A stretch of 64,000 nt of DNA from Takakia lepidozioides (lineage: Eukaryota > Plantae > Bryophyta), in assembly GCA_030704615.1 (NCBI GenBank), contig CM060734.1, positions 52,142,001 to 52,206,000 on the forward strand, read 5' to 3'. Within the stretch, counting starts at the first letter, position 1. Every line of letters begins with the position of its first letter. Of this stretch, positions 12,749-46,084 are shown piece by piece. The notes under the pieces are model-generated. The model made no database searches. It was not told the origin of the DNA and was given only the letters and a program-made list of their open reading frames with translations. The translations under genes were made by a program, and so were the position numbers.

Positions 12749-12795
12749 CATGAGCCCATGAGCCCATGAGCCTATGAGCCTATGAGCTCATGAGC
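12749..12795. repeat. Short tandem repeat (CATGAGCC/TATGAGCC) x~6
   Basis: Seen directly. Confidence 0.85.
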
Positions 12796-13912: not shown

Positions 13913-13915
13913 GGA

Positions 13916-19449: not shown

Positions 19450-19821
19450 AACTGTTCACGTCTTTTATGGCGTGGAAAGGGCTGTTTCAGCACCTTGAGA
19501 GGCCGCCTATAGATGACTACCATGAGTTTAGGTGGGGAAATGAGGTGGAGATTGAGGAGTGGCGACAATATTGGTCACCTGACTATATCTCCATCACTAG
19601 AGGCACAAGGGCAGCGGCGACACCAGCAGCTACACCAACATCCCCACGGCAAGCACTAGTAGTGGGACAAGTAAAGATGGAGCTGGGAAATCCACTCAAG
19701 CTCCTGCTGCACCACCAACACCCGTGCCTGCCTTATTGTGGCATGACTTTCTAGGACTATATGCTAGGAAGTGTGGTTGGACAGCGATGTATGTTGTGGC
19801 ACGATGCTTAGGTGCACGACA

Positions 19822-20450: not shown

Positions 20451-23400
20451 CGGTATATAGGTCTTGGGCGGGTATCAACTAGGGTAAGGGTAATGGTATG
20501 AAGGATCATGCGGGTACCTACAAGGGCAAAACCCGGCAATACCCTGGTGGGGTAGGATACATGGACTTCTAAAACCCTGGCGCAAAACATACCGGTCTGG
20601 TCTTCTTCATCGCGTTACCACTCCAGTACCATGCATGCGTCGGTTGAGGGACATGATGCAAGGGTAGGGTCTAGGGTAGTTTGTGGTTAGGGATATTAAC
20701 TACATATAGTGTTTTCAAGAGGGCACTTCAATGAGGATGAGTTACAGGATGCTAATATGTTTGAAGAGGAGTAGATAAATGCAATTTGTTAGTTTTTGCT
20801 CTTAAAGAGTGATAGAGAAGAGTTAGGGGCCATTTGGGAAAAATTTCAATATTGAAATGGGCCATTTCAACTATTCAAATGGCCATTTGAATAGTTGAAA
20901 TCTTAATATGATTTAAAGGGCCTCCGTCCATTTTTTTTATTTTTTATTTTTAAATTTTTTAAGAGTTAGAAAGAATTGCACTAGTGTAGCTGGTATCAGA
21001 TGTCGTGCGCATACATATCGCTACACAACTACATCGCTGTCCAAAACCACACAACACATGTGCACACCACACACTAGTATACCACTAGTCCAACACTAGG
21101 CTACAACTGTCATCACTAGGCTGCCAACACTCTGCCCCACTATGGCAGTCACTAGTCCACATCAATGATAACGAAGAAATCAAGCCAAGCTCATGCCGAG
21201 CTTCACAAAAGCTGAAGGCTAAACTCATGCATATATAACCCTCATCACTCAATCAAGTCAAGCCCCGTGCACCCCACGCCATGGGGAATCCACACTACGC
21301 GCCATAGCTAGGCGCGGTGAGGCTCAACTCGAGAAAAATGAGCCTCCCGCGCTTGCCGTGAAAGATACCACTTCCATGGCCTAAATCTCTGCGCTTGACC
21401 CCTGGATTGCACGATTGGGCCAATCCCAAGCTATTTCCTAGCTAGTTTCACACTAGTGGTAAAATAACTTGACAGCTGTCGTGCGCATACATATCGCTAC
21501 ACAACTACATCATCGCTGTCCAAAACCACACAACACATGTGCACACCACACACTAGTATACCACTAGTCTACCACTAGTCCAGCCACTAGTCCAACCACT
21601 AGGCTACAACTAGTCAGTCACTAGGCTGCCACTACGCTGCCCACTATGGCAGTCACTAGTCCACACAATCGCCCCCCTAGCTGGTGCTTAGGTCCCTCTA
21701 AGTCCAGGTAGCCACAAGATGTGATAGTGACCATAGCCGTGTCCACACTAAAATCGCCCCCCCTAGCTGGGCTTAGGTCCCTATAAGTCACAGGTAGCCA
21801 CAAGATGTGATAGACATAGCCTCCAAGTCCTCCACACCTATCCCTATACATCACATCGATAGATCAAGAGGCCGGGTGCAAGAGTTGCCCCTCGTTCGTC
21901 GCCGTCTGGGAACCTGTGACTTGAGCTTGGGATCTCATGTATTGACTCCTATGAGCTTGGCCTCCCATGTCTTGTTAGCTGCCTCCAGTCATGTCCACTG
22001 CCACTATCCAGGCAGTGTGGACACAACCATCATCCGTCAGGAACCTCTCAAGAGGTGGTGTCAACATCCCATATGTCCAACCCTTGAGCACCGATCACAC
22101 ACCAGCATGGTGGTTGCCCTTTGGCAGACCCACAGAGCATGCACCTCAAACCTTGCAGGTACCACTGCCAAGTTTGGGTCAACTCTGCCATCGACATTGG
22201 GAAGGTGGACATGGGCACAAGTACGCACAGGTCTTCCAAGTCATGCCATCACGACCCTCTAAGATCAGGACCCCTGAGGGCAACACCTCTCGAACCTCAG
22301 AATAACACGCCCTGCAGTAACATCCAGAGTCGTAGGAGCAGTCTGCTTGCCAATAAACATAGTCACCAGGGCTAAAACCCCGAAACCCCAGGACGATATC
22401 CTCCACCACGTATAGTGGCTACCTCAACGTATAACAGTGCTGTGCAATGGCAAGGTCTCAAAGGCCATGGGCATGATTTCTTGAACAACTCTGCACGCTG
22501 ATCACATGCACGTACCCACACGTCCGGATCGTCAAGGTTAAGGACTGACAGTGTCCCTACGAATGGCTGCAGGCAAATCGGCTCTCGGCCAAAGAGAAGG
22601 AAAATATGGTGAGAAGGAGGCAAGTGATGCTTGTTTGTGAACCTGTAGCCCATGGCTAACCAAGGACCTGAAGATCCCAATTCCTAGGTGTCCCTTCTGC
22701 AAGCCATACTTGCGCAAACCATTTCTTCACCGTCTGAACAACTCCTCTGCTAAGCCATCGGCTCAGGATGATCCCGAGAAGTGGGCGGTGGTCTATCAAG
22801 GCTTTATCACACAAAGCCTGAAACTCCCCCAAGAAACTCTCTCCCTTGGTCCGTGAGTACCTCCGCTGGAGCACCAAATCGGCTAAGCACACGATCCAAG
22901 AATGCATACGCAGCCCCCTCACTAGCCTTGTCAGGCAATGGACCAACTCAATCCACTGGAGAAGTGCTCCACCATCACCAACACATATGTGGTGGCGCAT
23001 AGTCAATGGCAACGGTCCTGCGAAGTCAAGACTCACCTGTAGCCCAATCCATGATAGGTAAAGATGCAACTGTGGTGTAGGGGCGTTGAATGAAGCACGC
23101 ACCCTGTCACACACCATGCACCTAGCCACAAACTGTTGCACCTCTGTATGCATACCACGCCACCAATACTGCCCCTGCAGTAAACTGTGAGTGCGTCGCA
23201 CTCCAAAATGCCCCAACTCCTCATGGGCATGCCGCACTAACCGTGCACGCTATGTGGGGTGAGGCACAATCCTCAACCCGACCACCCTCCCACACTCGAA
23301 GTAGGTGTATCCCCTACCCTTGAACCTCTTGGCTCGTTGCAGGATCCGATCCCTCTCCCTGGCAGTCACAATGGCTGCCGTGTCTCCCGTGCGGAGGTAG

Positions 23401-25379
23401 TCCAACACAGCCGAATCCTCATGTATATCTCTGGCACCACCTAGCTCATCACTAGCCTCAGGGTCCTCAGACACTCCGTCTACAGTCATCCCTGTTGTAG
23501 GTCCATTCTGACCTCCCGATGCCAAGATACACAAAAATGCAGATGCATGCCATCCCGGCACCATCTCCTCGTCCGTCTCACCATGCCACTGAGCTCCAGT
23601 TCAATCCATCCGCATCCCGATTACCAACCCGGTCGATGCACAACCTGAAATCATACTCCGAGAGTTAAGTGCCCACCGTGCAAGCTTCCCCGTAAGCTTG
23701 TCTGACTCCATCAACCACTTGAGTGGCTGGTGATCCGTGACAAGGGTGAAAAGATTGCCGTATAGATAGCACCTGAAGTGTGCCACGGCCCACACTGCAG
23801 CTAAGCACTCTCCCTCATATGAGCTGTACTTAGCCTCTGCAAGCGTTGTTCGAGCGCTAGCGTAAGCCACTACGAACTCTCTTCCCTCATCATCCACCTG
23901 TGTGAGCACCCGCTCCCAAGCCCAGCATGCTCCAATCTGTATGCAGCTGAAAGGACGCCCCCTGATAGGTCGTCTCAAGATAGGCGCCGAGGTCAACCTC
24001 GCCTTGAGCTCTTGAAAAGCTCATTCCTGCTCATCTTCCCACTGCCACTCCTGGTCCACCTTGGTCAGCTTGGTTAGAGCCTTTTGCAATGGTACTAAAT
24101 CCCTTGACAAACCGTCTATAATAGTTTGCCAACCCCATGAAAGCTCGAACTCGGCTCATATCCGTGGGGCGTGGAATTTGTTGCAATGGCCTCTACCTTA
24201 GTCTGCTGTACCCCAATCCTCCAGGATATATCATGTGACCCAGATACTCAATCTGGTTGTGGAAAAACTTGCACTTCCCCGGATGCAACTTCAATCCGTG
24301 CGCTCTCAAGCGCTCCAATACCACCTGAAGGTGTTCTCATGCTCCTCCATCGTAACACTAAAGATGATGATGTCATCTATGTAGCACCGAGCAAAGTCCA
24401 CCCCTGCTAGAATCCTATCCATGACTCTCTGAAACTCTGCAGGAGCATTCTTAAGCCCAAATGGTAAGAACCGCCAACTGATAAGGCAATCCTTGCCGTG
24501 CTCATTGATCCCCCAGAATGCCGTCTTCTGCTTGTCCGCCTCCTTGATTGGCAACTGGTGATATCCGGATCGTAAATCCAAAGTGCTAAAGCCTTAGCAT
24601 GCCCGATGGCATCAAAGATCTCCTCTGGTGTGGCATGGCATACTTATCGGACTTGGTCTGACGATTTACAGGCCGGTAATCACCCACATACGTCTCTCCG
24701 TCCAATTGCCATAGACATCCTTCTTGGCTGGCAATCACTGTGGCTGAAGCATACTCTCCACCAGAGCTCCACCAAACCTGCCTCCCAGAGATCTTGAGTC
24801 CTCATCTGAATCAAAGACCTTCTGTCACTGTATCTATAGGGTCTCCGAAAGATTGGCGTGTCAGTGGCCAACTCAATACGGATCTCTTGACCCTTCAGTG
24901 CTCTCAGTCCTTCAAACTGAAGGCAAAGCAATTCCTGTAAGCCCTCAGGAACCGCCGTATACGTCGTCTCTCTCCTCCGGTGACAATGGGTCCAATGTCA
25001 GGCTCCCAATTGTCCTCCGTAACTACAACCTTAAGTCCAGTGGGCTTAGAGGTAGAGACGCGTCCCGTGGTTGCTATGCTGCAACCTCTTGAGCAGTACT
25101 CCCTGCCTGCTCAGTCAATGACAAGACCTCATCCTGCCCCATCCTCTTATCATTGAGGACCTCCTACACCGAGAAGAATCCCAACCTCATCTATCACAGC
25201 CGCCTTGGCTGCCAACTCCCTCTGAACCTCGAGCACCTCCCACGTGTGCCATGGATGCATGCACCCCGTGGTCCTCACATGCTCGCCCCCACTCACTGCC
25301 TGTACCGTCTCGGTAGGCAGAGAGACCATTGAGGGAAGGTGTATTCCGCACTCTGCGTTGCTCAGCCAGAGCCAAGCTG

Positions 25380-26315
25380 ATAATCCAGGTCAAGGCAATT
25401 GAGATCCATTGCTTGCCCCAACACTTGACGACGTGATGCCTCAGAAAGAGACGACACCGCCGTGGTACCAGTGGTAAACCCATTGCCCGCTCACGCTCGT
25501 CAGCATTAGGCTCCACTAACTGCTGCAACTGAGCATCCCACAGGAGGCCAGGTCCACTATCCCGGAAAGCATGCGATCCTGGGAAGCTGAGCAGTGTAGG
25601 TAATGATGCTCGTGTTGACCCACCTTTGTTGACCACTGCAAAGGCGACACGGTCATCGTGTCTCACACGTTGAGACTGCCTCCCTGTGTCCAGAATGTTT
25701 CCACTGTGAGATGTGCTGGCCGCTGCACCCCATCAATGCTCGCTTGAGCAGTGCGGGTGGCATCATGTTAGTCCACCATAGCGTGGACGATGAGCCCGTG
25801 ACCCCACTGTAGCTGCATCTAGCAACACTGCTGACCAAGCCAAGACCGGACTTGATGCACACTGGCCCCCACCCTGGCCCGAGAATCACCCATTCAGTGG
25901 CACATTCTCCAAGATGTATGCTGGAGATACAGCTTGATGAAGCTGCAAGTGGCCGCAAAACCCGCACCATCTCCCAAAACAGACCCGACCTCGATCTCGC
26001 AATCCATTGTCATGCCCGGCTGATGAATGCCCTTGGCAGGGCCAACCTGCCACTACCAGATCATGGAGCCAACCCGCTCCAAATCCTGCGCCCCCAGCAA
26101 CGAAATGTCTGCTGGCAAGGCCTGCTGATATCACGAATTGCAGACACCGACACACTCAGGGTACCGCTGCACCAACTGAGCAACATGGCGAAGTGAAACG
26201 CGTTGTGCAGTCTCATCCCTCTCCACATACAGGTAACACCGAACTCGTACACCTGCCTGTAACACAGCAGCCAATCCGGTGCTGATCCCGCCAACAAGTC
26301 CAGAAGACAAATGCC
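25380..26315 (-). pseudogene. E2 DNMT3-like methyltransferase domain (frameshifted)
   Basis: ICLLDL, DLVVAGWPCQGHS, AYILENVP, (A)HRP.LWWTN and PNADERERAMG. Confidence 0.82.
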
Positions 26316-28299
26316 TTCATCCGGAGACTGCCACACAATAGGTGTGGTGTCCAATGGAGACAATTGAGGTGGTCCTGGTGCAATCCCCACACTCTCCTCC
26401 TCTCCTGACGGTACAAAAGCCTCCACCCAGGCTTGTTGCACCCGTCGATTCAGCATCCCGCTACAAATCCTTGCTCGTGCCCCACAATGGAGTCTGAGCA
26501 ACCATGGTAGGCACCTCGTCATACCATACTGTCATCCTGCTCTCCCGGAGGTGGTACATCCTCTGAATGAGCATTGCCCTCAAACAACTCTCTAGGCCAA
26601 CTCACTGCCGCTGTGAATGCTGCTAGTGTCGGCATCTTGCCTCGCTGGGCAACCGCAACTCCTCCTATGAACGTCACAGGGAGCTGCACACGCCGGCCCT
26701 CCCCTGACTGCCATGCAGGCCTATATGAAGCTGACTCCCCCAAAAATCCAGGGTGAAGCCCATGGGGTACAACACTGCCCCATCAACCAGGACATCGTAT
26801 GAGACTGCGTCTGTCACAATGGCCTTGGCTCGCATCACTGAGCCATCTGTAGGGTGATCCGGCCGTAGTCTGATAGCCAACTCATGCGTGTCATGCCCCA
26901 AGCCTGCTCCGATCCTCCCAAAGACGTCTGTATCTGGAAAGGACAAGGCTCCATATCCGCCCTCCGTGAGGCCCAAGCCTGCAATAGCAGCTCTGCCAGC
27001 ATCAATTGGCTGAGCTCCCGAGTCCAACAAGACCGCAGTGGCCGGTAACCTTCTTGCCTGCCGGTCACTCAAACAGAAAATGCCATCCTGGTTGTCTAAC
27101 ATGACAACTCCAGGTGTCACCATGGCGCGCTCAATGGCTGGCCTAGCTGGCAGCTCCATCAACCTGGCAGCTCCATCAACCTGGCAGCTGCAGCTTGCCA
27201 TGGCGCCGCCATGGCAGTCTTAACCCTCAAATCCGAGGATCCCTCCGGCACTACACCTCCTACTATCTCCGCAGAAGATGAAGTAACCTCCCCACTCTCA
27301 CAGAGTGTAGCTGCCAGCCTGAACAACTCAGCTGGTCTTACCCCCGGCGTCGCAATCATGGTAGCCGAGAACAATGGAGCCTGGCACACAGATGTGGCCG
27401 CTCCTAGCAGCACACTAGCTGCCGTAGCCTTGGCAACACTAGGTAGTGGTGCTACCCGTGTAGCTCTCCCCAATGGCATAGTAACCTCCGCCTCGGTAAC
27501 AGTCGGGCGAGAACTAGGTACCGCACACCTCGTCTCGTGTACCCACTAGTATCGCTAGTGCTCGAACCGGCACTGTCCCCAGCAACTAGTGGCACCTCCG
27601 TGTTGACACTCAACCGGTCATGAACATGTCCCTATCCCCCTCTTCACAAGGTAACCGGGTAGAGAACCTGTTGCGGCTTATGGTTTGGAATACTAAGTTC
27701 CTAACATAGCCTACACCTGTACCTGCATCCACCGCAAGCACTCCTATGGTTGGCTGGTCATCACCTCCAACCTCACCACAGAGAAACAATGATGGTCTGG
27801 CTGGTCATCACCCCAGCCTCACCATCGACAGCATGCTCTAGGACTGGCCGGTGATCAAATCCGGACCAATCACCTATAAAAACAAGCGCCCACACAAAAC
27901 TAGCATGGCGCACAGTCAGCATGCAGGTATGGAGGGGATCCAAACACAAGAAATCAGATCGACACTCCCCCACACCAAAAACAACTCCACGGTGTGCTCC
28001 TGCAAGGACACCCCAGCCCAAACCCGGACTGACTCTTGCCTCCACCTACGGAAAGGTCTTGGCCTAATGAGAGGGTGGAAACTACAAGAAGAGAAGCTAA
28101 AGCAATGCCTAATCCCAGCATGCTCTCATCCCAACACTCTGCCTCTCCTCTCTACCCTCACTTGCATGACCATGGGAATATCTTGAAGATACTCCTCAAA
28201 ACCGCCCTCCACGAGCTTCAAAATTCGGCCTTCCAGACCACATGCCAGTCCTTAGGCAGTCCACCAGTGCCTCCACGAGTCAGCACAGGCCGTCCACAG

Positions 28300-29015
28300 G
28301 TCAACACGGGCCACCACAGACCAGCACAGGCCCCACAGCTCACCGGTCACAGCCGTCACAGTCCCACAGGCCACTGGGCACAGCCTGTCGCAGCCCCTGC
28401 ACAGCCTGTCACAGCCTCAAAGGCCTCAGGCACGGCCTGTCACAGCCCCTCACAGCCCCTCACAGCCCGTCACAGCCCCAAAGGCCTCAGGCACGGCCTG
28501 TCACAGCCCCTCCATAGCCCGTCACAGCCCCAAAGGCCTCAGGCACGGCCTGTCACAGCCCGTCACAGCCCGTCACAGCCTCAAAGGCCTCAGGCACGGC
28601 CTGTCACAGCCCCTCACAGCCCGTCACAGCCCCAAAGGCCTCAGGCACGGCCTGTCACAGCCCTCACAGCCCGTCACAGCCTCAAAGGCCTCAGGCGCTG
28701 TCACAGCCCGTCACAGCCCCACAGGCCTCAGGGCACAGCCTGTCCACAGCCCGTCCACAGCCCCACAGCCTCAGGGCACAGCCTGTCACAGCCCGCACAG
28801 CCCGTCCACAGCCCAAAGGCCACTGGGCACAGCCTGTCACAGCAGTCACAGCCCAACAGGGCACAGGGCACAGCCTGTCACAGCCATCACAGCCCATCAC
28901 AGCCTCAAAGGCCTCAGGCACGGCTGTCACAGCCCGTCACCGCCCACCGTCACAGCTCGCCACAGCCTGGACACAGCCCGTCACAGCCCGTCACAGCTTG
29001 CCACAGCCTGTCCAG
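28300..29015. repeat. Minisatellite of (GT)CACAGCC(C)-based units with AAAGGCCTCAGGCACGGCCT spacers in the E2 leader
   Basis: Seen directly; a related short array in opposite orientation lies at ~12490-12600. Confidence 0.9.
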
Positions 29016-31519
29016 CCCCCACACATGGCCGCTCTGGCAGTGTAGCCATTCTCCAAGGGGTTTAGCCACGCCAAGCTAGGTTTGTGTCTCTTGGACTCTA
29101 GGCTTCTTTCCACCGAGCTATGGTGGCTGTGAGGAAATCAGCAAGGTATCCTTGCTCTTTCGGCTCCCCACACACCACCATAGTAGCCCTAAGCCATGAG
29201 GTGGTTGCCACAAAACCAAGCCTTTTTCTCACTTAGCCTCCCCAACACGCCACTAAACTCAATGGCAAACAACCAAGCCCTGCGGTTCCCAGCCCTGTGA
29301 GCACTCATTCAAGCACTCCCCTCATTGGCCATAGCATCTGTCTTAGAGCCTATTCTAGCCTCTACACCTGTTGCTTCAAGAGTTGCGCTCCCTTCAAGCT
29401 TGAAGTTGAAACCCAACACATAGGGCCCTACAAGTGCTGTTCTTTCACTCCAAGTGGAAACCAGCCCTAGACCTTCCGTTCTAGCTCTCTAAGGCTTGAA
29501 AACAAGAGCCTCAATGGGCTGAAGGCATGCTCCACACATGCCCCACTCTCACCATAGAGAATCAGCTCCTTTGCTTCATTTCTTGCACCCACAAACCTGA
29601 TAATACAAGCTTCAGTAGGCTTAAAGCATGCTCTACATGCCCTACAGGAAACCAGCCCCTTCCTTCCTTTCTTGCACTCCACACCTAAAAGTGCAAGCCT
29701 CACCAGGCTGTGATAGCATGCTCCACACATACATTGCCCTCACATAAGGGAAGTCAGCCTTCCTCTTCCTTGCTTGCCCTCCCCAAGCTTGAAGATGGAA
29801 GCTTCAATGAGCTGAATACATGCTCCACACATGAAACCTCTTCACACAAGAGATATCAGCCCCTATCTTGGCTCCTTGGCTCCTTGATGCTCTCTATGAC
29901 AAGACTAAGCACTCCATAGCCTTTGCCAAGCTCCTGAAACCCTAAGGCTTACATTTCCAGCCACAAGACACTTCTCTTGTGGTGCAAGAACTCTTCTTCC
30001 AAGCTTTGAAACCCTAGGTGCACATTCCATGGCCTTTGCCGCACCTCTTAGCTCCTGTTCCAGCCCTGCTCTTGCCATGACAAGAGCCCTCTCAATGCTG
30101 AAGCTCGAGATTGAAACCCAATCTCACCATACTCCACAAAGTGCACTGATTTGCCCAAGCAAAATCAGCCCTTTCGCCTGGTCTTGCAATCCTTCACACA
30201 ATGAAAGCTCGCATTCCCAAGTCCAGTTCTCAGCTTTGCCACCAAAGCCACTATTAACCTGCTCTTGACTGGTCCTCTTCCCAATCGTGCTTGCTCATGC
30301 ATGTACACAATCTGGAACCATCAAGGTGCTCTGGAATTACCTGCAGCATGGTGCTTTCATTCTCTGAAGCTGAACTGAAGATCGAATGCCAAGGTCTACC
30401 ACCTCGTAACCCACATCCCTCCGCTTCTAACAACTAAGAGGCTCCACGGTGCTCCTTGCATAACAACTTGGTTTCTCTCATTCTCAAGCAAAACACAAGT
30501 GCTACAACTAACTCGTATCTGGCACTCACAGATACGAGCTGATCTTTCTCGAGTGATATAAAGAAAGAAGAATACAAGACACAAGCTCATGCGAGCTCAC
30601 AAAGCTGAAGGATAAACTCATGCATATATAACCTCATCACTCAAATACAAGTCAAGCCAAGTGCCCCACGCCATGGGGAATCCACACTACGGCACATAGC
30701 TAGGCGCGGTGAGGCTCAACTCGAGAAAGATGAGCCTCCGCGCTTGCCGTGAAGATAACCACTCCAGGGCCTAAATCTGCCTTGACCCTGGATGACACTT
30801 GGGCCAATCCCAAATGTCAATATGTAAAAGATAGCTATTGGACCCTGGATGTATTGGACCCTGGATGTACACTTGGGCCACGCCCAATGTCAATAATGTA
30901 AAAGATGCTATTCCTAGCTAGTTTTCACACTAGTGGACCAATAACTTGACACATACCCTGGCACATACCAGGCTGGTAGGACTTTTAAAAGTTTGTTTAA
31001 TACCATACCAGTCAGATTTTCACTTTGATACCATATCATATATCATACAAAGCTATTAAATTTACACATCATTTAATACCAGTACCATACTGGTTTCAAT
31101 AATTCAACTATACCCCCAATACCTTTACCCTAGTGGTATCAAAAAACCATGATACCAGTCCAACACTGGTTGGAACAATGACTTGGAGATCTCCCAAATT
31201 GCAGGCTCTCTAGACCCATGGGGAATTGTACTTGGACTTAGATGACATTGGACACTGGAGGTCACACTTGGGTTTATGGGTTGAAATTACTATTCAGCTA
31301 TCTGGCAATTATTGGCATCTTCTAACATTTTGATTAATGAACTTAGCCAGGATATCATGGAGCTGGAGATTGAACCCAAGATCTCATGGCGTTGAAGCAT
31401 TAAACATAGAATCTCGTGGCCTTCAAGCATTGAACCCAGATCTCATGGAGCTTGAGAGCACTAAAGAAGTTTTGCCATGGGGCCCACCAGCTCTCAAGAG
31501 TTATGTCAAGGGCCCACCA

Positions 31520-31729: not shown

Positions 31730-34700
31730 AAATTTACCCTCATACCAAGTGGCACATTGAGCCTTTCACATATGCCAGAGGGTCAAGGCTCTGAGAGCAA
31801 CCCACACCGGGCAAGCACTCCATCTTTGGCCTTCATGGAGATTCATGAGGTGAAGAGAGAGAGAGCCAGCATCAACCTGGCACCCCGCAAGATCTGACGA
31901 GAAATCATCTAACTTGTGAACAAACAACATAGGCAAAACAACTACAGTAGAAAATACTATGTTCCATAGTTTCCATCAACCTAAGAGACTCGCATAATTT
32001 GCAAAGCAAAGGAGGATCAGACCCAAAGTGGGGTGAAGAGACATTATAATTTATGTTCGTCTCTAAGTTAGAGCCAACTTTTTTTTAACAATTTTTTAAA
32101 ACCTTTCTTCAGATTTCCTAGAGTTTTTGAATTAAATACGGTCTTACATACAGAAGGTGCATAGTTGTTGTACTCTGAACCATGCGCTTGCTCTGGCCCA
32201 GTTTTACAGCCTAAACTGTTTTTGTTTTTTTTTTTTAAATAAAAGGGGGTAATAGCCCTTTGACAAAGAAATAACCATGATAGAAGGCCACAACCGTGGT
32301 GTTGGATCTCCAAAAAGAAGGACCCATTCTTTGCCCTCACTGTAAATTGGGGTTATTCCTTGTTTTCTCCCTCTAGCCTCCTTCTTCGCAAATGGAGTAG
32401 ATATGAAAGGGAGGAACCCGATCCACTTGCCTGGGGACACCGCTTTCAATTGGGAAAATCGACACATTAACGTCCGTAAGCAGGACAAATGTGGCTTCCC
32501 AACCCCCTCCCAAGGACTTGAAAGTCTGTAGATACCCACACATTAAATAACCGGTTGACCCATTCCATCTTTCCTTCCTTCCTCTGCACAATTCCATAGT
32601 GCACAATGTTAAATTTGACAATGGGGATTGAGTGTTGAAGAATAGACGAGGATTGTACTCACATTGAGCTAACTGCAAACGTTGGAGAGCATGTGAGTAT
32701 GCTACAAGCCTTCAATGAAGTGGAGCACCCCTACTCAAACCATTACGATTAGATAATACAATAATCCCATCTTTGTTACCTCCATAGTATCTAGAAAATG
32801 CCGATTCTCAAGATCTACTCAATCGGACTAGGGATACTCATGGCCACTTTAGACTATGGACAAAGACCAAGACGAACTCAAAATGCGAGGATTCTATTGG
32901 TCAAGTGCATTTTCTTGGTCATAGTGGCTTTACATGGGGATTGGTAGGGCATGAGTGGGATCCACGGTTATGGGGGTGATATGTATGCCAACATAAATAC
33001 ATATAATAGACGGACATATCGTCTTTCTGTGTTAGTAGGGTCTACATGGTGTCTAAATATAATCTTAAACATATAGAAGGAGCTTGAAAGGGAGAAACCT
33101 TTAAAAAACAAAGAAAAAAACAAAACAAACACCAATTTTGCCATGAAACCCTAGTTTCGTTGGAAAAAACCCAAGATGCTTTGTATTTCGCTAGCGAAAT
33201 CCATTTTTTGGGTGGTTCTAGGGGATGTTCTACATACAATGTTTTTAGCAAATGTCACATGGTTTATGTTCCCTGTCCTTTGAGTTCTGGCAGATATATT
33301 TGTGGGTCTTTGTGCTCACGTGAGTTAAGCTTTGACGATTAATTTCATAAGTTTTGTCGGTGAGCACGGTTTTACAGATAATTTCGTATTTTCTTTTCGC
33401 ATGGGCACATTTTGGTTTCGCTATCATATATTCTTTGGATTCTTGGGGAATATACAGAATATGCCTATGTGCTCGTGTGAGTCTGCTCACATTGACGTAA
33501 GCCTACTCACATGCTACCCAACCTTGCCTTACACTATGGACCAAGACCAATAAAGGTAGGAATGACATGGCGTCTAAGCGGTGTTGATTATGGCGGGAGA
33601 TCATTGGTCTAGGGACGAAGAAAAGAACCCATGTAGTTTGGAGGACCAATTCTTGGACCCGAGACATGGAAACATTAAACTATAATTTACTCCCTGACCA
33701 TCGTTAGAATCTTTAAAAAATAAAAAAAAAAAGGGGACAGATCAGCATGTTACTCAAATTAATTAAAGGACAGGAAAAATAAGCCGTTACAAATAAGCCG
33801 TGAAGCTAATTAAGGGGATACCACCCCGAGACCAACAAATTAAGGAATGAGAGATAGAGCCAGCCTAGTGCAATTGGGGGCAGCTATCGTGTGAGCATAA
33901 CTCGTGAGCATATTCCCTTACGCGTGAGCAGAGTGAAAACGTGAGCAGATTAGTGATGCGGATGGTCGTGGCAATACGTATCGCTACACAACTACATCGC
34001 TGTCCAAACCACACCACACATATATGCACAATAAAGTAGTCTGCCACAATGATAAACAAGCTAAAAGGGCACACACTTTCAACACAAGAAATATGAAATC
34101 CATCGCTATCACTCTTTAAAATAGAAGTCGAGCCAGGGGCACCCCAAGCTATGGGGACTCCACCCCACAACAACCTACACTCCCATCATAAGCACACTCA
34201 GATCTAAACGCATGAAGGAGCTCGGTCGCGCAGGCTCAACTCGAGAGAGATGAGCTGCGCGACTGCCGCTCTCGTGAAGATAAGACGGTTCAGGTGTCAA
34301 ACTAAACTTGACACCTGACTTAACACTTGACCTAACCAAGTGTTAAATACAAATAACTAGCTTTATTCTAGTTGTTTTCACACTGTGCTTATTTAACTTG
34401 ACAGCTGTCGTGCGCATACGTATCGCTACACAACTACATCGCTGTCCAAACCACACCACACATATATGCACAATAAAGTAGTCTGCCACAATCGCCCCCC
34501 CTAGCTGGTGGATAGGTCCCTCTAACTCCAGATAGCTACAAGATGTAATAGCCACAGCCGTACTAAGTCCTCTATCACTCTCTGCCCCTATTGTACTCAA
34601 ACTCTATAGACCAAGAGGCCGGGTACAAGAGTAGCCCCATCGTTAGTCGCCGTCTTGCAATCTGTGAACTTGAGCCAGGACCTCGTGTGTTCAAGGTCTC

Positions 34701-34755
34701 CTAGTAGCTGGGCCTTGCGTTTCTTGTTAGCCTTCCATGGTTGTATCCACTCCCA

Positions 34756-35280
34756 CTATCCAATGCAATGTGGACATAACCAATCCCCATCCGGAACCAT
34801 CTCAAGAGGTGGAGTCAAGCATCCCATATGCCAACCTCTAGAGCATCGATCACACACCAGCATGGTGGCTGCCCCTCTAGCAGACCCACACAACATGCAC
34901 CTCAAACCTGCAGATACCACTGCCAGGTTTGGGTCAATCCTGCCATCGACATTCGGAAGGTGACATGGCGCACAATTACGCACATGGTCCTTCCAAGTTA
35001 TGCCATCCCGACCCTCCAAGACCAAGACGCCTGAGGGCAAGACCTCTCGAACCCTCAAAATAACACGTCCTGCAGTCACATCCAAGGTCGTAGGAGCAGT
35101 CTGCTGCAGATAGACATAGTCACCAGGGTTGAATCTCCGAACCCCAGGACGATAGCCCCCACCACGTATGGTAGCATACCTCAACGTATCACGGTGTTGT
35201 GCAATGGCAAGGTTCTCGAAAGCCATGGGCATGACTCTCTTGAACAACTCTGCACGCTGCTCACATGCACGTGCCCACAC
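34756..35280 (-). CDS. E3 integrase C-terminus with an intact PHD finger
   Basis: FNPGDYVYL (GPY/F-like module), then CMLC..CDRCSRGWHMGCLTPPLEMVPDGDWLCPHC (C4HC3), then stop. Confidence 0.9.
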   Translation of the reverse strand: MWARACEQRAELFKRVMPMAFENLAIAQHRDTLRYATIRGGGYRPGVRRFNPGDYVYLQQTAPTTLDVTAGRVILRVREVLPSGVLVLEGRDGITWKDHVRNCAPCHLPNVDGRIDPNLAVVSAGLRCMLCGSARGAATMLVCDRCSRGWHMGCLTPPLEMVPDGDWLCPHCIG

Positions 35281-37700
35281 GTCCGGATCGTCAAGGTTAA
35301 GAACTGTAGCAGCCTAAGCACACAATCCAAGAATGCATACGCAGCTCCCCCTAAGCACACAATCCAAGAATGCATACGCAGCTCCCCTCACTAGCCGTAT
35401 CAGGCAAAATGGAAACCAATGAATCCACTTGGAGGAGTGATCCACCATCACCAACACGTACTTGTGTGGATGGTGACATGGTAGTGGGAGAGTGGCAACG
35501 GCCCTGCGATGTCAAGACCAACCTGTAGCCCAATCCCATGATCGGAAAGAGGTGTGCAAATGGTGGAGTAGGGGCGTTGAATGAAGCACCGCACCCGGTC
35601 ACACACCATGCACCTAGCCACAAATTGTTGCACATCTGTGTTGCATACCACGCCACCAAATACTGCCCTGCAATAACTATGAGTGCGTCGCACCCCAAAA
35701 TGCCCCAAACTCCTCATGGGCATGCCGCGCACTAACTCGTGCCCGCGATTTGTTTGTGTTGGGTGAGGCACAATCCTCACTCGACCATCTCCCACACTCG
35801 GAAGCAGGTGTGTCCCCTCCACTTGAAACCCTCTTGGCTCGTTGTAGGATCCGACCTCTCCTGGCAGTCCACAGTGGCTTGCCCTGCAGTTCTCCATTGA
35901 AGAGGTAGTCCACACAACTGAATCCTCATGTATATCTTGGCCGCCACCTTGCATCATTGCTGGCCTCAGGGTGGTCCTCAGACACGTTGATCTACAGTCA
36001 TCCCGTTGCAGGTCCAACCTGGGCCTTTCCGCTGGACAAGAATCACAGAAATGCAGATGCACGCCATCCGGGCACCATTTTCATCCGTCTCACCATGCCA
36101 CCGAGCTCCAGTGTCATCTTGCTGGCTCGTGCATGGAGCGACTCAACCCATCTGCATTGCAATTAACCAAACCCGGTCGATGCAAACACCTGAAAGTCAT
36201 ACTCTGAAGGATGAGTGCCCACCGTGCAAGCTTCCCCGTAAGCTTGTCTGACTCCATCAACCACTGAGTGGTTGGTGATCAGTGTGACAAGGGTGAAGAG
36301 ATTGCCGTATAGATAGCACCTGAAGTGTGCCACGGCCCACACTGCAGGCTAAGCATTTCCATATATGAGATACGTAGAATCAGCAGCATGGTCGAGCGGT
36401 AGCGTAAGCCACTACGAACTCTCTTCCTATCATTCCACCTGTGGGAGCACGCTCCATCTGTATGCTAGCTGAAAAAGGACGCCCCAATAGGTCGTCTCAA
36501 GATGGACACAGGAGCGAGTCGAGACCTCCAACTGAGGGTAGCGAGCCCCGTAGCGCAAAAGCTTGCTTCATTCAGCTCAGGTACTACGGACAACGTCACC
36601 CTGGACGATGCCTAAACAACCGGTTGGGACTACCATGGCTATGACGGTACAGCCACCCTTGGTCCGACCAGTTTAGTAGTTATGAGTAGCCTGTTAGGAA
36701 CCTATGTATTGCACTGACGGAGATAATCCATTACATACCGACAAATTGTAAAAAGTAGCCTGCAGAGGGTAAGCAACAAAAAGATGTGCACCACAAGCAG
36801 GCCTCAGGAGGCAGACTCGAACTCAGCTCACATCGCTTGGCACATACGCGCAGTGCGTCGAATACGCAAAAAGTAGAAGCCTGTTGCCCCAAGGCACTCT
36901 ATCCTTAGTCTGCGAATGGAATCCCGCAATCCTCCAGGATATATCATGTGATCCAGATACTCAATCTGGTTGTGGAAAAAAAACTTGCACTTTCCCGGAT
37001 GTAACTTCAATCCGTTCGTCCTCAAGCGCTCAAATACCCCCTGAAGGTGTCTTCTTATGTTCCTCCACCGTAGCACTAAAGAATGATTGGATGTCATCTA
37101 TGTAGCACCGAGCAAATTCTCCACCCCTGCTAGAATCCTATCAATGACTCTTTGAAACTCAGCGGGAGCATTTTTAAGCCCAAATGTAAGGAACCGCCAC
37201 TGGTATAGGCAAATCCCTTCCCGTGCTCATTGATCCCAGAATGCCGTCTTTTGCTTATCCGCCTCCTTGATCGGCAACTGGTGATATCCGGATCATAAAT
37301 TCCAACGTGCTAAAGACCTGGAATGCCTATGGCATCAAAGATCTCCTCTGGTGTCGGCATGGCATACTATCGGACTGGTCTGACGATTTAACAGGCGGTA
37401 ATCACCGCACATACGTCTCTCCGTCCAATTGCCATAGACATCCTTCTTGGCTGGCATCACTGTGGCTGAAGCATACTCTCCACCAGAGAGCTCACCAAAC
37501 CTGCCTCCCAGAGATCTTGAGTCTTCATCTGAATCAAAGACCTCTCCATGTCACTGTATCTATAGGGTCTCCGAAAGATTGGCGTGTCAGTGGGCCAACT
37601 CAATACGGATCTCTTGACTCTTCAGTGCTCCCAAGTCCTTGCAAACTGAAGGCAAAGCAATTCTTTGTAAGCCCTCAGGAACCGCCGTATACGTCGTTTT
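35281..37700 (-). pseudogene. E3 RT-RNase H-integrase core (very indel-rich, partly scrambled)
   Basis: Colinear with E2 ~22500-24960; LKLHPGKCKFF and HAHEEF..GHFGVRRTH remnants. Confidence 0.75.
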
Positions 37701-38109
37701 CTCTCCTCCGGTTACAATGGGTCCAATGTCAGGCTCCCAATTGTCCTCCGTACTGCAACCTTAAGTCCAGTGGCTTAGAGGTAGAGGACGCGTCCCGTGG
37801 TTGCTATGGCTGCAACCTCTTGAGCATACTCCCTGCCTGCTCAGTCAATGACAAGAACCTCATCCTGCCCCATCATCTTATCATTGAGGACCTCCTCAAC
37901 CCGAGAAGAATCCCCAACCTCATCTATCACAGCCGCCTTGGCTGCCAACTCCCTCTGAACCTCGAGCACCTCCCACGTGTGCCATGGATGCATGCACCTC
38001 GTGGTCCTCACATTCTCGCCCCACTCACTCTCCCTGTAACCGTCTCGGTAGGCAGAGAGACCGTCAAGGGAAGTGCACTCCGCACTCTACGTTGCTCAGG
38101 CATAGCCAA

Positions 38110-39050
38110 GCTGATAATCCAGGTCAAGCAATTGAGATCCATTGCTTGCCCCAACACTTGACGACGTGATGCCTCAGAAAGAGAAGGCACCGCCGTGGTC
38201 CCAGTGGAAAACTCCATAGCCCATTCTCGTTCGTCGGCATTAGGCTCCACTATCTGTTGCAACTGGCTATCCCACAAGAGGCCAGGTCCACCATCCCGAA
38301 AAGCATGGGATCCTGGGAAGCTGAGCAGTGTAGGTAATGCTGCTCGTGGTTGACCCACCCTGTTGACCATGCCAAAGGCGAATGGTCTCGTGTCTCACAC
38401 GTTGAGACTGCCTCCCTGTGTCCAAAATGCCATCCACGGTGAGGTGTGTTGGCCGCTGCACCCCATCAAATGCACAGTAGTGCGGGTGGCATCAGTTAGG
38501 TCCCCAAAGCCGTGGACGATGAGCCCGTGACCCCCACTGCAGCTGCATCCAGCAACACTGCTGACCCAAGCCACGACCGGACTTGATGCACACTGGCCAT
38601 CACCCTGGCCCGAGAATCGCCCATCAGTGGCACATTCTCCATGATGTATGCTGGCGATACAGCTTGATGAAGCTGCAAGTGGTGCAAAATCCGCACCATC
38701 TCCCAAAACAGACCCGTCCTCGAGTCTCGCAATTCATTGCCATGCCCGGCTGATGAATGCCCTTGGCAGGGCCAACCTGCCACTACCAGATCAATGGAGC
38801 CAACCTGCTCCAAATCCGGCGCCCCCAGCAACGAAATGTCTGCTGGCAAGGCTTGTTAGTATCCACGAACTGCAGCCACTGGCAACAAAGCAGGGTACTG
38901 TTGTACCAACTGAGCAACATGGCGCAGTGAGACGCGTCGTGCAGTCCCATCCCTCTCCACATACAGGTAACACCTTACCCGCACACCTGCCTGTAGCATA
39001 GCAGCCAATCCGGTGCTGATCCCGCCAAACAAGTCCAGAAGGTAAATGCC
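38110..39050 (-). pseudogene. E3 DNMT3-like methyltransferase domain, in frame with the protease (one in-frame TAA, later frameshifts)
   Basis: ORF 38856-40331 runs from protease LLDSGAEP directly into LLDLFGGISTG..YLYVERD. The same frame continues to DLVVAGWPCQGHS and YIMENV; later PNADEREWAMEF and RRQVLGQAMD. Confidence 0.9.
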
Positions 39051-42000
39051 TTCATCCGGATACTGCCACACAATAGGTGTGGTATCCAATGGTGACAACT
39101 GAGGTGGTCCTGGTGCAATACCCGCACTCTCCTCCTCTCCTGACGGTACAAAAGCCTCTACCCAGGCTTGTTGCACCCGTCGATCAGCAACCTGCTGCAA
39201 ATCCTTGCTCGTACCCCACAATGGAGTGTGAGCAACCATGGCAGGCAACTCCGCCATACCATGCATGTCATCCTGCTCTGATGGAGGTGGCACATCCTCT
39301 GCATGAGCATTGCCTTCCAGCAACTCTCCAGGCCAACTAACTGCAGCTGTAAAGGCGGCTAGTGTTGGCATATTGCCCCATTGGGCAGCCGCAATACCCC
39401 CAATGAATGTCACAGGGAGTTGTGCACGACGACCATCCCCTGACTGCCATCCAGGCATGTAGGATGCTGACTCCTCCCAAAAGTCCAGGGTGAAGCCCAT
39501 GGGATATAACACTGCTCCACCAACAAGGACATCGTAAGAGACCGCGTCTGTCACAATGGCCTTGGCTTGCATCACTGAGCCATCTACATGATGATCTACT
39601 TGTAGTCCAATGGCCAACTCACGCCGTGTCATGCCCCGAGCCTGCTCTGATCCTCCCAGAGATGTCTGTGTCTGGAAATGACAAGGCTCCATATCCGCCT
39701 CCATGAGGCCCAAACCTGCAATAGCAGCTCTGCCCAACATCAGTGGCTCAGCTCCCGAGTCCAACAAGACCCGCAGTGGCCGGTACTTCTTGCCTGCCGG
39801 TCCACTCAAAGAGAAAATGTCATCCTGGTTGTCTAACAAGACAACTCCAGGTGTCACCATGGCACGCTCAAAGGCTGGCCTAGCTGGCAGCTCCGTCAAC
39901 CTGGCAGCTGCAGCTTGCCATGGCGCAGCCGTGGCAGTCTTGACCCTCAAATCTGAGGATTCCTCTGCCACTACACCTTCTAGTAACTCCGCAGAAGATG
40001 AAGTGACCTCCCCATTCTCACAGAGTGTTGCTGCTAGTCTGAACATTGCAGCTGGTCTTACCCCCGGCGTCGCAATCATGGTTGTCGAGAACAGTGGGGC
40101 TTGACACACAGAGGTGGCTGCCCCCAACAACACACCGGCTGCACTAGCCTTGGCAGCAGGTGTCAGTACTGCACGTGTAGCTCTCCCCAATGGCATAGAA
40201 ACCTCCGCCTCGGTAACAGTCGGGCGAGAACTAGGTGCCATGGATGGCGTTGACACTGTCTCCGCCAAGGTGAATGACTGAGGTAGCCTCGCCTGACGGC
40301 TTGCCTCCCCACGTTGTGGATCCAACTCCACCTCTGCACTTCGTGGCTCAGGAACTCATGCTACTCCTCGAGTCACGGCTGCAGCAGACTCCACCTGCTC
40401 TAGTGGTAGTGCTGCTCCGCACATGAATCCCATGCCTCCCATATCTCCTCCCTCAGGAACAGGAGGTGGACCATCCCGCCTGGGAGCCGGTACTGCCTGA
40501 GCTGTAGCCATGGCAGCGAGCCTCTACTCTAGCTGCTGAAGCCGGTTGGCCATGCCTTGGTCAACACCCTGACCTCCGCGTCCTTGGCCATGTTGAGCTT
40601 GCCCTTGGCCTGCACCTCGTGCCCGACCACCTCGTCCTCTCTGGGCTGGTCCACCTCGCCCCCGGCCACCATTGTTCCCTTGGAACTGGCCTGGGTGCAA
40701 CTCAAGATGCAAGTCATAACACTGGGCATCTCCATGCCCATACTTGCCACAATGCCCACACTGCAACTGTGCAGGCTATGTTTGTGCCGGCCTTTTGCCA
40801 CTCTCTGGGCAATCTCTCTTGACATGGGGTCCTCCACATGTCCAACATATCACCCCTGGTTGTTGTTGGCCTGCAAAAGATGCCACGGGCCTCTGCACCT
40901 GAGGTCCCCTGTAAGCTCCATGGAACTTGGGTTGGGAAACCTTGCCCCCCTGACCACGCTGTTGGGCAGTCCCTTGTGCCTGTGGGCTGGCAGCTGCGCC
41001 TCGTGCAGACATGTCCTTGCCAAACCCAATGGTAACAACTCGCTCCTCCACCATGTTGAGCTCTTGGAAGCAGAGAGAGAATGAATGACAGCTATGATCT
41101 ACCCAGAGATAGAAATGATCCCGCTCAGCCAGCAGAAACACATCTGCTAATGTGGGTTGGGCTGCTTGTAACAGGGTTGCATCCCGCACCCTTCTCCTGA
41201 GCTCCTTGTCCAAAATTCCATACCAGAACTGGATTGCCTGAGCTTCAGTATCCCCTTGGGTCACACTTATCAAGCGTCTCATACGAGTGTAGGCCTCTGG
41301 CAAGCTCTCACTGGGTTTGCGCTGGAAGTCTTGCAAACTTCGCAGCTTCTTTGTCCGTACACCTTGGTAGTTCCTCCGCAACTCCTGGAAGAACTCCACC
41401 ACCGGGTTGAATCTAGGCACATGTGTTGTAATCGTGGTAGGAGGAGTAGTAGCACCTTTTGAACTGGTACCACCTGCAGAAGTACCGGCACTACTTGTTC
41501 CACTACTAGTGCTGGTAGTGGGAGATATTGGTACTGATGCAGCTACTGGTCGCGTCGTGCCTCGAGTAATGGAGACGTAGTCAGGTGACCAATACATCCT
41601 CCACTCCTCAATCTCTGCTTCATGTCCTCGCCTGAACTCGTGGTAATCGTCCATAGGCGGGCCTTCCAAATGCTGGAACAGTCCCTTCCACGCCATGAAT
41701 GGGGTGAATAGCTGTGGATTGCGCATCTGCTGCAAATCACACCAGCTGTCGAACTCCTGGATAAAGTCATCCAACTCAATTGTGCCCACAGCTCCAGAGT
41801 ACCTACGAGGCCCCTTGGTAGCTCCATACATCTCCTCCATGTCGTCCCACAACAATGGCGAATGAAACTGCACACCTGTTGATGAAGCCTCCGAGTCTGT
41901 GTCTAACTCTACAGTAGTTGAGGGTGGCGGTGAAGGTGGTCTGAACCGAATACCTCGTCTTGTGAACCCACTCTCACTGTTACTGCCTGTAGCCGTACTC

Positions 42001-42056
42001 CCCTCAAAACCCTTGGGTAACTCCGTAATGACACTCACAATGTGCACCTCCTCCAC
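39051..42056 (-). pseudogene. E3 Gag (two CCHC knuckles) and aspartic protease
   Basis: 426-aa ORF 40776-42056 with CWTCGGPHVKRDC; then CGHCGKYGHGDAQC; protease VLLDSGA and YDVLVG. Confidence 0.9.
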
Positions 42057-43714
42057 GTGGCACTATAAGGCTCTAGTACTAATCTAATAGTGACACGGGT
42101 GGGCACATGTTGCAGTCTAAGGGTCATATCCCAATGGCTTAGGGCACCTGCACCTGCATCCACCGCAAGAACTCCTATGGTTGGCTGGTCATCAACCCAG
42201 TCTCACCATAGAAGAAACACTGGTGGTCTTGCTGGTCATCACTCCAGCCTCACCACCGACAACATACTCTAGGATTGACCGGTGATCAAATCCGGCCTAA
42301 TCCCTATGAAAGCAAGCGCCCACACAAAACCAACATGGCACACAGTCAAGCATGCAGGTGTTGGGGGGGATCCAAACACAAGAAATCAAAACATCAACAC
42401 CCCCACACCAAAATCCATCTGCAGTGCTGACCTGCAGAATATCCCAGCCCAAAACCCCGGACTGACTGGCCTCCACCAAGAGAGGCTTTGGCAACTACAA
42501 GTACAAAGTAATGAAAATAGTAAAGAGATGGAGGGGAAGAATAGAAGCCCGACCAAGCAAGATCTAATCCTGATCTATGCTATCAACTGCCAGACTTCTC
42601 TCAAAGTGCCTCGCTCTGCATGATGGTAAGGTATAGGAGGTATATCTATGTCCAAAAACCTGCCACTAACCTTGTCCCAAGCTACAGTAGCTCGCTCTAA
42701 CCAACCCTCCTCCTCTTTCTGCTAGGTAGAGACAAAGCAATACTCCCCTATCTCCCGCTCACTGAACACTAAAGAAAACAAAGGTAGGGTCTGATAGTCT
42801 CTCAACTCGAAAGCTTTGAGACGGTTGCGGGTGTCCTCATTGCGAATGACTGCATCTCCCTCAAGCAAAACAAACTTGTCATTGTTAATGAACCCCCGCT
42901 CATGGTTGCCTTGTGCAGAGTGTGTCCGGCTGCAACCATGTCTGATTGCACAAACTTGTGTAGCTCCTGCTCCTCTGCTCCAGTACACCACGGCCTTGTG
43001 GCTGAACACCTGGTCCCCGGGGCTGTCTTTGGCTGTGTTCCAAGCCTAGCTTTCACCCACTTTGGTATTTCACCTACAGCTGCAGAACTGCTGGCTCCAA
43101 CAGAGTTCTGACTGTCCAAAGCAATATTGAGGCCCTCAACGCCAACTACAACAGTTTGTTGTCCACTGCTAATGCCTGACTCCCAGTATGCAATCAACTC
43201 GTCCAACTGTTCTCCACTCAAATCAGTCTGAGTTCCTTGGGAAACATAAATCCTATCCCCTTGTGTGCACAGGCTAAGAGAAGAAACCTGCCCTTCAATT
43301 ACGTCCTCATTTCCCCCAGCCATACAAGGAGTACATCCACAGATTTGTCTCTCATATAGACTAGCACAGGTTCTAGAAACAGAATTGTGGATCTTTCATG
43401 GCACACTCACACTCTAAAAATTCCATAGATTTTTAGCAGAGTCCTAAAAACAAAAACCAGGTCTAGATTGGTAGATTTCCCCTTTTTGCAGCTATCCCCT
43501 CAAAAACTGAGTCAAACAGAGCCCATTTGACAAAGATATAACCAATTTGGCTCTAAATCATTCAAATTAGATCAAAGGCCCCCCCCTTTTAGGTTTTCAA
43601 ATTTAAAAATTTAAAGTTGCACCCAAAATATCTGGTAACTGGTTCCCGGTTCCCTAAGTTCTATATGGTTTCCTCGGTTCCCTGGCCACGTGCGTGCTGT
43701 TCCCCTCCGTTTCA

Positions 43715-44945: not shown

Positions 44946-46084
44946 AGCCAGTGAGGAAGATGTCGCGAGGAGATGGGCTGTTTGAACTCTCCAGGGTTTT
45001 GTGAGGGCGCGAATCGGGCCTACAACATACAGATGTGACTTTTAACTCCCAAAATGTATGGGCCTAAGCAGCTCTCCAGCTATCCATTTCACTCCCGGCA
45101 CTTTGTATTCATCCTAGGGACGTTGTGGTAGTGCAGATATCAGCGTTCACAGCTTGCCAGCGCTGCTCCATGCTGCACGGTAGAGCTTCTCTATAAGCTT
45201 ACTGGGGAAACAATCATCCAGCTTCAAGGATCACGCATAGGTGCCAACTAGCATTTGCTGCTGCATTTTTAAGTCTCTCCTTGTGTGCTCCAAAGCCTTT
45301 GGTGACTTGGTAGCTTCAGCGACTGCAATAACAGTGGCGGCTCCGGCATCGTCATCCTCCAGGCGTTTCAGGGCACGCTGAATCTTGTGATCACATTCAA
45401 TGATATGCTTCTCAAACTAAGCACTACTTACACACGGGTAATCTTGCAAGTGCTAACCCTCAACTCCTACCTTGTAGTCACAGGTAAGATAACATCTCTC
45501 TCGAGTGATAAACAAGCTAAAAGGGCACACACTTTCAACACAAGAAATATGAAATCCATCGCTATCACTCTTTAAAATAAAAGTCGAGCCAGGGGCACCC
45601 CAAGCTATGGGGACTCCACCCCACAACAACCTACACTCCCATCATAAAGCACACTCAGATCTAAACGCATGAAGGAAGCTCGGTCGCGCAGACTCAACTC
45701 GAGAGAGATGAGCTGCGCGACTGCCGCTCTCATGAAGATAAGACGGTTCAGGTATCAAACTAAACTTGACACCTGACTTAACACTTGACCTAAATCCAAG
45801 TGTTAAGTACAAATAACTAGCTTTATTCTAGTCGTTTTCACACTGTGCTTATTTAACTTGACACGGACCCTAAAACCGAGGGAAAAAGTGGGCCTATTGC
45901 CGTGGATGCAAACTCCACTACAAGGATGCAATCTCCTTTCCATCAGACCAAAGACAGAAAGGCTCCAAAAAACAATGTGGCACGAATGTGCGATGAAAAA
46001 TTGACGGATGAATGTAATGGATGAACGTTGGATGAGTGTCGGATGAAAAATTGCCCAGATGAGTGAGCCATAATTCCAGCCCAG

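Follow-up and report, generated by a model that had tools for sequence, protein, structure and literature searches.

The closest described system is KnitGypsy-Dnmt3 from the alga Klebsormidium nitens, a Gypsy element with an intronless Dnmt3-like domain and a Ka/Ks below 0.2 (de Mendoza et al., 2018; PMC5890265). In the accessible part of that paper, the element is described from this one alga as a lineage-specific acquisition with the DNMT in the Pol ORF, and its A-coding-B-A-B repeat layout is noted without a mechanism. The Klebsormidium domain had no detectable activity in yeast, a result that the authors call inconclusive, while the DIRS-borne SymbioDIRS-Dnmt3 methylates CG de novo in yeast (PMC5890265). 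As far as the available portions of the sources go, SymbioDIRS-Dnmt3 and SymbioLINE-Dnmt (PMC5890265) and the EpiLTRs (bioRxiv 10.64898/2026.05.21.726589) share with the family reported here a retrotransposon-borne C5 methyltransferase under purifying selection. They differ in element class or DNMT clade, and have a tyrosine recombinase or a chromodomain where this family has a DDE integrase with a PHD finger; the EpiLTR DNMTs are sister to DNMT4 and lie at the 3' end of pol. Gypsy-borne DNMT3 is briefly mentioned for 'streptophytes' in accessible passages of two sources (bioRxiv 10.64898/2026.05.21.726589; PMC12344493). Within the full-text literature searched, it is described only in PMC5890265. 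The accessible text of PMC11244446, PMC12885004, PMC11982613, PMC10952607 and PMC6453930 contains no land-plant element of this kind.

The window, the whole 64-kb stretch of DNA that was analysed, contains three copies (E1, E2 and E3) of a Gypsy family in which a DNMT3-like domain follows the protease. All three DNMT domains lie on the minus strand. The features are as follows.

8126..19821, ends on plus and most coding sequence on minus strand, E1 whole element, rearranged, flanks CTTT/CTTT
15822..15830, minus strand, E1 TAG CAA CCA, in frame with the upstream DNMT ORF and the downstream RT ORF
16200..17162, minus strand, E1 DNMT3-like domain, single frame, one stop after PCQ
20997..30951, minus strand, E2 whole element, gag deleted, protease-DNMT-RT-RNase H-integrase-PHD, flanks TATG/TCTG
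30554-30951 (A1), 21473-21669 (B1), 21170-21474 (A2) and 20997-21166 (B2), minus strand, E2 repeats
25068..25076, minus strand, E2 TAG CAA CCA, homologous site
25373..26324 (about), minus strand, E2 DNMT3-like domain, several frameshifts
33963..34050, minus strand, E3 repeat B2, 3' end, then TCCG at 33959-33962
34050..34403, minus strand, E3 repeat A2, 6 substitutions and 4 gap columns against A1
34407..34501, minus strand, E3 polypurine tract and repeat B1, the B1/A2 junction being the palindrome GACAGCTGTC
34759..35745, minus strand, E3 integrase (PF17921) and C-terminal PHD finger (PF00628, E 3e-11)
36130..37751, minus strand, E3 RT and RNase H, heavily broken, YIDD at 37104
37798..37806, minus strand, E3 TAG CAA CCA, predicted from its sequence context to be a leaky stop closing ORF1 (Gag-PR-DNMT)
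38104..39059, minus strand, E3 DNMT3-like C5-methyltransferase domain, motifs I-X, one stop at 38858, frameshift near 38531
39402..39860, minus strand, E3 aspartic protease, LDSG at 39764 (PF13650, E 0.001, below cut-off)
40527..42062, minus strand, E3 gag with two CCHC knuckles, same frame as protease and DNMT, 4 stops in 1188 codons
43657..45416, minus strand, E3 host-gene fragments, MAD1 (no introns seen) and a ribosomal L12 piece, between 5' repeat and gag
45493..45505, minus strand, E3 predicted self-priming site, 13 nt complementary to 45698-45710 within A1 (0 of 500 shuffles as long)
45506..45863, minus strand, E3 repeat A1, 5' end, begins TGTCA, 4-bp flank TCCG at 45864-45867

Intron-containing genes flank the elements, which identifies the window as plant chromosome. 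A CCD7-like carotenoid oxygenase gene (57112-62714, minus strand, eight matching segments) is 48-52% identical to four Sphagnum proteins and 43-48% to seven angiosperm proteins, which places the host among the land plants, probably the seed-free ones. An amino-acid-permease gene (PF01490, about 1100-5800, minus strand) may be of the AUX1/LAX type. A short dispersed repeat occurs in three copies of about 80% identity (5048-5359, 50576-50807 and 55522-55678).

Each copy follows the order gag (CCHC), protease, DNMT, RT, RNase H, integrase and PHD finger, except that E2 lacks gag and E1 is rearranged. The first-pass annotation had reported a methyltransferase domain of about 310 codons between protease and RT in E1, E2 and E3, and the domain was found there in all three, recognizable by Pfam PF00145. 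In the proposed PF00145 check, pieces of all three copies matched: E3 lay above the curated cut-off (E 5e-13) and E2 at the cut-off of 22 (22.1 bits, 1.2e-4), while E1 remained below it (19.3 bits, 8.6e-4). The C5-methyltransferase motifs I, IV (PC), VI (ENV), VIII (RxR) and IX-X occur in that, non-permuted, order. Their positions in E3 are 39035 (DLFGG), 38969 (YLYVE), 38777 (GWPCQ), 38639 (ENV), 38524 (AHRPR) and 38163 (RQVLG). E1 has AHQPR in place of AHRPR and a stop directly after PCQ. The E3 domain had also been said to be in frame with the protease; the two share the open frame 40355-38859, which covers the protease and motifs I-III, and after the stop at 38858 the frame continues to motif VIII. 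Most or many contigs of the family lack the stop that E3 has at 40778 and its frameshift near 38531. All three copies are broken and dead. The placement of the domain 'inside Pol' has to be corrected, since in this subfamily the domain closes the Gag-protease ORF, upstream of a conserved in-frame UAG.

The affinity to DNMT3 was supported, DNMT3A/B being nearest by sequence and by fold before DRM and the bacterial enzymes. The Calypogeia homolog P0003 is 58-62% identical to the window domains over matched stretches. Against PDB sequences, its top 29 of 48 matches were DNMT3A/B/C (best E 8e-11), followed by DRM (4e-7) and then by HaeIII/HhaI; its Atlas model reached a TM of 0.77 to DNMT3A clusters. 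An AlphaFold model of one locus domain, weak (10-row alignment, pLDDT 60) and used as a fold check only, gave DNMT3A as first fold match. The host DNMT3 enzymes of animals and moss have the non-permuted order, the motif-VIII segment and the fold in common with it (PDB matches; accessible part of PMC6453930). In contrast to them, the retrotransposon domain lacks PWWP and ADD domains, has an 18-residue insertion after motif II-III and PCQ rather than PCN, and is situated inside a polyprotein; aligned by fold with DNMT3A, it shows about 22% identity.

Pairwise codon counts of the DNMT domain gave a dN/dS of 0.15 for E1-E2 (251 codons), 0.14 for E1-E3 (281) and 0.30 for E2-E3 (241). Two pairs of relatives with an uninterrupted domain gave 0.12. 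In comparisons across subfamilies and among these relatives, the protease had values of 0.08-0.13 and RT-RNase H of 0.05-0.08; the linker from the DNMT to the stop reached 0.51-0.77. These ratios, none of them near 1, indicate that the DNMT domain is under purifying selection (0.12-0.30). Contig depth in short reads, which is not a copy number, is as high over the DNMT as over gag; most subfamily members thus appear to carry the domain. On sequence evidence, the DNMT3-like domain of this land-plant Gypsy family is real and selected.

Searching with the E1 domain yielded 44 proteins from 793 candidates, among them 14 from Marchantia polymorpha, one from Calypogeia fissa and one from Sphagnum fallax at 53-70% identity. 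A profile search found 438 clusters (50% identity) at E 1e-30 or better. Among the best 150 of the 438, the DNMT follows the protease or precedes RT in 17, follows RNase H or precedes the integrase in 85, and is unplaceable in 48. Thirty proteins were looked up, and those named came from Calypogeia, Klebsormidium nitens, Mesostigma, five Closterium and, with the second architecture, Scenedesmus. Homologs are present in Marchantia, Calypogeia, Sphagnum, Closterium and Mesostigma. The two architectures split apart in both the DNMT tree (205 rows, 14 of them phage outgroup, computed without host DNMT3, DRM and DNMT1 rows) and the RT tree (59 rows), both made with FastTree. The large sister group (e.g. 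P0159, P0035, P0114; named member Scenedesmus) has the DNMT between RNase H and integrase and the PHD finger at the end. Viral contigs contained only distant phage-type methyltransferases (30 loci, 28-48% over short segments). The simplest reading of these distributions is one old green-lineage family and not a capture in Klebsormidium alone.

In common with KnitGypsy-Dnmt3, as far as that element is described in the accessible text of PMC5890265, the window family has the Gypsy domains, an intronless non-permuted Dnmt3-like domain, DIRS-like A-coding-B-A-B repeats (in E2 and E3) and a low Ka/Ks (0.12-0.15 between subfamilies, within the bound of 0.2; 0.30 for E2-E3). It differs in the land-plant host, in the in-frame UAG-CAR-YYA between DNMT and RT and in its streptophyte-wide range. 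A single open frame with DNMT and RT is absent from the window's clade and occurs in clade C, a related group of metagenome loci, and in some Closterium models. The PHD finger, self-priming and 4-bp target site duplications (TSDs) are not mentioned for KnitGypsy-Dnmt3 in the accessible text. The K. nitens protein GAQ93235.1, which we infer to be one of the elements of de Mendoza et al., is a homolog in which CCHC, protease and DNMT follow one another as in the window family, with 34% identity to the E1 domain; it is placed outside the window's clade, in a part of the DNMT tree with open branching. Judged from its domain order and repeat layout, the window family is probably a land-plant relative of KnitGypsy-Dnmt3, a variant with a stop and not a new kind of element. 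The first-pass statement that it knew of no described land-plant family agrees with the full-text literature searched, in which none was found. The putative new elements are the streptophyte-wide range and the conserved leaky-stop context that would place the enzyme in the Gag-protease ORF.

TAG CAA CCA stands between the DNMT domain and RT in all three window copies, although E1 is near synonymous saturation against E2 and E3. Within the nine bases of the E3 stop, no substitution of at least 1% is listed in the family contigs, an absent row not being proof, and nearby places vary by 2-15%. From 311 metagenome hits 80 loci were retained, of which 58 reach from the end of the DNMT into the beginning of RT, with a common frame in 45; as they were retrieved with a DNMT query, they are uninformative on how often the domain is lost. 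In clade A, all 20 same-frame loci have the stop, with a linker that hardly differs from the one in the Sphagnum protein. Alignment of the nucleotides shows a stop at the homologous site in 32 of 33 clade A loci (23 TAG, 9 TAA), mostly followed by CAA CCC, which deviates from CAR-YYA at the sixth base. All four clade B loci read TAG CAG TTA or TAG CAA TCA; one of them, L026, consists of 1369 codons, a single TAG and 1047 codons in the same frame. Clade C is without the conserved stop: of its 21 same-frame loci, 13 are open, and in 8 stops occur at scattered places. For this clade a gag/pol frameshift was also considered but rejected, being seen in L046 and absent from most loci. Clade C appears to have a single ORF, so the family would be able to work without the stop.

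Counted by lineage and not by copy, CAR-YYA is complete in five of six lineages and CAR-YY in all six. After background decay stops, the corresponding frequencies are 0 of 169 and 1 of 169. Among the relatives, three lineages repeat the stop in its perfect context, and one large subfamily has it with the one-base variant. The spacer from stop to RT varies in length by lineage, yet is in frame and open, without a shared Met. Of the database proteins of the window's clade, 26 of 30 terminate before RT, and the elements with the stop group together as a single clade in both trees (DNMT 96, RT 100). No shared RNA structure was found 3' of the stop; z was below -3 in two of seven sequences and in none of the window copies. 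CAR-YYA is a known plant readthrough signal of the TMV type with about 10% efficiency in vivo (PMC2754532), also listed for plant viruses in PMC4132726. According to the consulted parts of these papers and of PMC2194720, a lone in-frame UAG with CAR-YYA between two functional ORFs is common to this site and those of TMV, MuLV, SIRE1 and Tca2; here the coding regions on both sides are in frame, and clade A is off at the sixth base. Whereas the known breaks follow gag or precede env, the one here comes behind both protease and DNMT, and its readthrough is a prediction. A conserved stop in leaky context in DNMT-bearing Gypsy elements was not found in the full-text literature searched. The in-frame UAG between the DNMT domain and RT implies a Gag-PR-DNMT product of ORF1, and by analogy RT-RNase H-integrase-PHD likely needs stop readthrough.

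The gag-protease-RT-RNase H-integrase order, the DDE integrase, the TG..CA ends and the short TSD are those of Ty3/Gypsy. E3 has the layout A1-coding-polypurine tract-B1-A2-B2 with A and B pairs about 95-97% identical, and E2 is built alike. Of the 21 loci that extend far enough at the 3' side, 5 show both pairs and 5 more show one pair. The 4-bp TSD is exact in six of eight two-ended elements, matches in three of four bases in E2 and is missing in L049. The palindrome at the B1/A2 junction occurs in E1, E2, E3 and several loci. Membership in DIRS/PAT/Ngaro was rejected because of the DDE-type integrase and the 4-bp TSDs, with no recombinase match in 116 pieces scanned. The bases after A1 complement a stretch inside A over 12-16 nt in six of nine cases, with a sequence that changes between subfamilies; the complement is absent in L055 and short in L012, where the element boundary is misplaced. 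Neither a tRNA primer site behind A1 nor a tRNA gene anywhere in the 64-kb window was seen. Both the lack of a tRNA primer site and the complementarity to the repeat recall the self-priming Gypsy elements Tcn1/Tf1 (accessible part of PMC6317226), from which the family differs in its split repeats and the DNMT. It was not assigned to these chromoviruses, as the chromodomain is absent and a PHD finger forms the integrase C-terminus. The finger resembles those of KDM5B-PHD1, PHF21A and UHRF1, which may indicate binding of unmethylated H3K4. Its cage Trp is lost in 63 of 64 relatives, 59 of which have Gly there.

Several peculiarities concern single copies. At about 9806-13900, the E1 integrase is interrupted by inserted DNA that carries part of a Copia-type RT (PF07727, 9710-10051, plus strand). 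E1 is also inverted internally (8126-8664 and 19445-19821); two A copies make up a long inverted repeat, and the TSD reads on the plus strand like the ends. E2 has lost about 1.7 kb of gag relative to E3 (27520-27522), and its 5' region contains a tandem array (28200-29040) of units about 51 bp long. The E3 subfamily is very abundant in short-read data (window positions 33900-46000 compared). The MAD1/L12 region of E3 is covered at a much lower short-read depth than the rest of the element, which makes this capture rare or private; a search for homologs of the MAD1 fragment found none.

For the land-plant branch we lean, with modest confidence, towards a reading in which the DNMT closes the Gag-PR ORF, UAG-CAR-YYA is read through and the enzyme, made at Gag level, is packaged and probably methylates new cDNA. 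Most ribosomes would stop at the UAG and release Gag-PR-DNMT; a minority, on the order of 10% judging from known recoding signals, would extend to RT-RNase H-integrase-PHD. The protease would free the DNMT, and the packaged enzyme would be present at capsid numbers at the site of cDNA synthesis. With the enzyme at Gag level, RT and integrase rationed and the break after the DNMT, a packaged, stoichiometric role on the cDNA is predicted. The likeliest substrate would be the new cDNA, so that the fresh copy would arrive methylated, as a self mark or a brake. If the LTR corresponds to B+A, normal reverse transcription would give B-A-internal-B-A. Joining of the ends would form a two-LTR circle, and cleavage of the internal GACAGCTGTC palindrome by the integrase may produce the observed layout. 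The PHD finger may steer integration to H3K4-unmethylated chromatin. Only tentatively, as a possibility short of a probability, can these parts be extended to a lineage as old as green plants and still abundant in seed-free land plants: it would deliver an active DNMT3 at capsid stoichiometry via the leaky stop, methylate its cDNA before integration, open the circle within one LTR and choose H3K4-unmethylated targets through the PHD finger.

The strongest competitor, itself unlikely, has the enzyme act mainly on chromosomal DNA, i.e. the new insertion, its neighbourhood or older members, and so dampen the element's own expression. Gag-level synthesis would exceed the amount of enzyme needed for one cDNA. 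The ADD domain of DNMT3 prefers H3K4me0, a preference echoed by the integrase PHD finger with its KDM5B-PHD1/PHF21A/UHRF1 likeness and frequent Gly at the cage position. That finger, however, sits on the integrase beyond the stop and not on the DNMT. A slow-down role of retrotransposon DNMTs to the benefit of the host is raised in the accessible text of PMC5890265, where the K. nitens methylome is not unusual, and in moss a host DNMT3b already methylates TEs de novo (PMC6453930, in the part available).

Less probable still is a non-catalytic task of the domain, such as binding or shielding the cDNA or interfering with host DNMT3. Pseudo-enzymes usually lose the catalytic Cys, the ENx glutamate and the motif-VIII arginines, but all three are conserved throughout hundreds of clusters at 50% identity, with PCQ/ENV retained in the clade of the window copies. 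Among the best 150 of the 438 clusters, the motif-IV cysteine is present in 136, while in 74 of the 150 motif IV reads EC and not PC, the proline being replaced by glutamate with the cysteine kept; the loci L043-L080 show EC too. This exchange would suit a non-catalytic role, as would the absence of detectable activity of the Klebsormidium relative in yeast (PMC5890265, accessible part) and the lack of CpG depletion as a sign of self-methylation beyond that of the flanks (observed/expected 0.49-0.53 within the elements against 0.45-0.50 outside them).

A bypass of the stop by splicing or an internal promoter, which would leave the DNMT at Gag level and supply RT from another mRNA, is rather improbable. 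Ogre elements splice out a Gag-PR/RT spacer, and clade A has a pyrimidine-rich stretch ending in AG upstream of the RT start. Four Marchantia and one Sphagnum gene models fuse DNMT to RT; the two examined (P0006 and P0031) omit the linker in a splice-like manner. In Tca2, local context gave no readthrough at the in-frame gag-pol stop (accessible part of PMC2194720). Splicing, however, needs neither the same frame nor CAR-YY after the stop in six diverged lineages. Contig X7, possibly RNA although its kind is guessed, is unspliced across the site; this is weak evidence, since genomic RNA must exist anyway. A chance host-gene capture or assembly artefact, suggested by the passenger gene fragments of E3 and the indel-rich copies, is already refuted by the same DNMT position in all three copies and from Mesostigma to mosses, the dN/dS of about 0.12-0.15, and a DNMT depth like that of gag where the MAD1 part is about 100-fold lower or more.

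The favoured reading, of a packaged enzyme made at Gag level, bears on the question why some retrotransposons carry an enzyme that normally silences them. The only Gypsy example in print showed no activity in yeast, and the system now extends to Marchantia and mosses, both genetically tractable. A supposedly Klebsormidium-specific capture becomes an old lineage of 438 clusters at 50% identity. One subclade with a recoding stop offers a structural clue, as the break after the DNMT would keep this enzyme at Gag level with RT and integrase rationed. Some bryophyte gene models annotated as 'DNA methyltransferase' are transposon ORFs.
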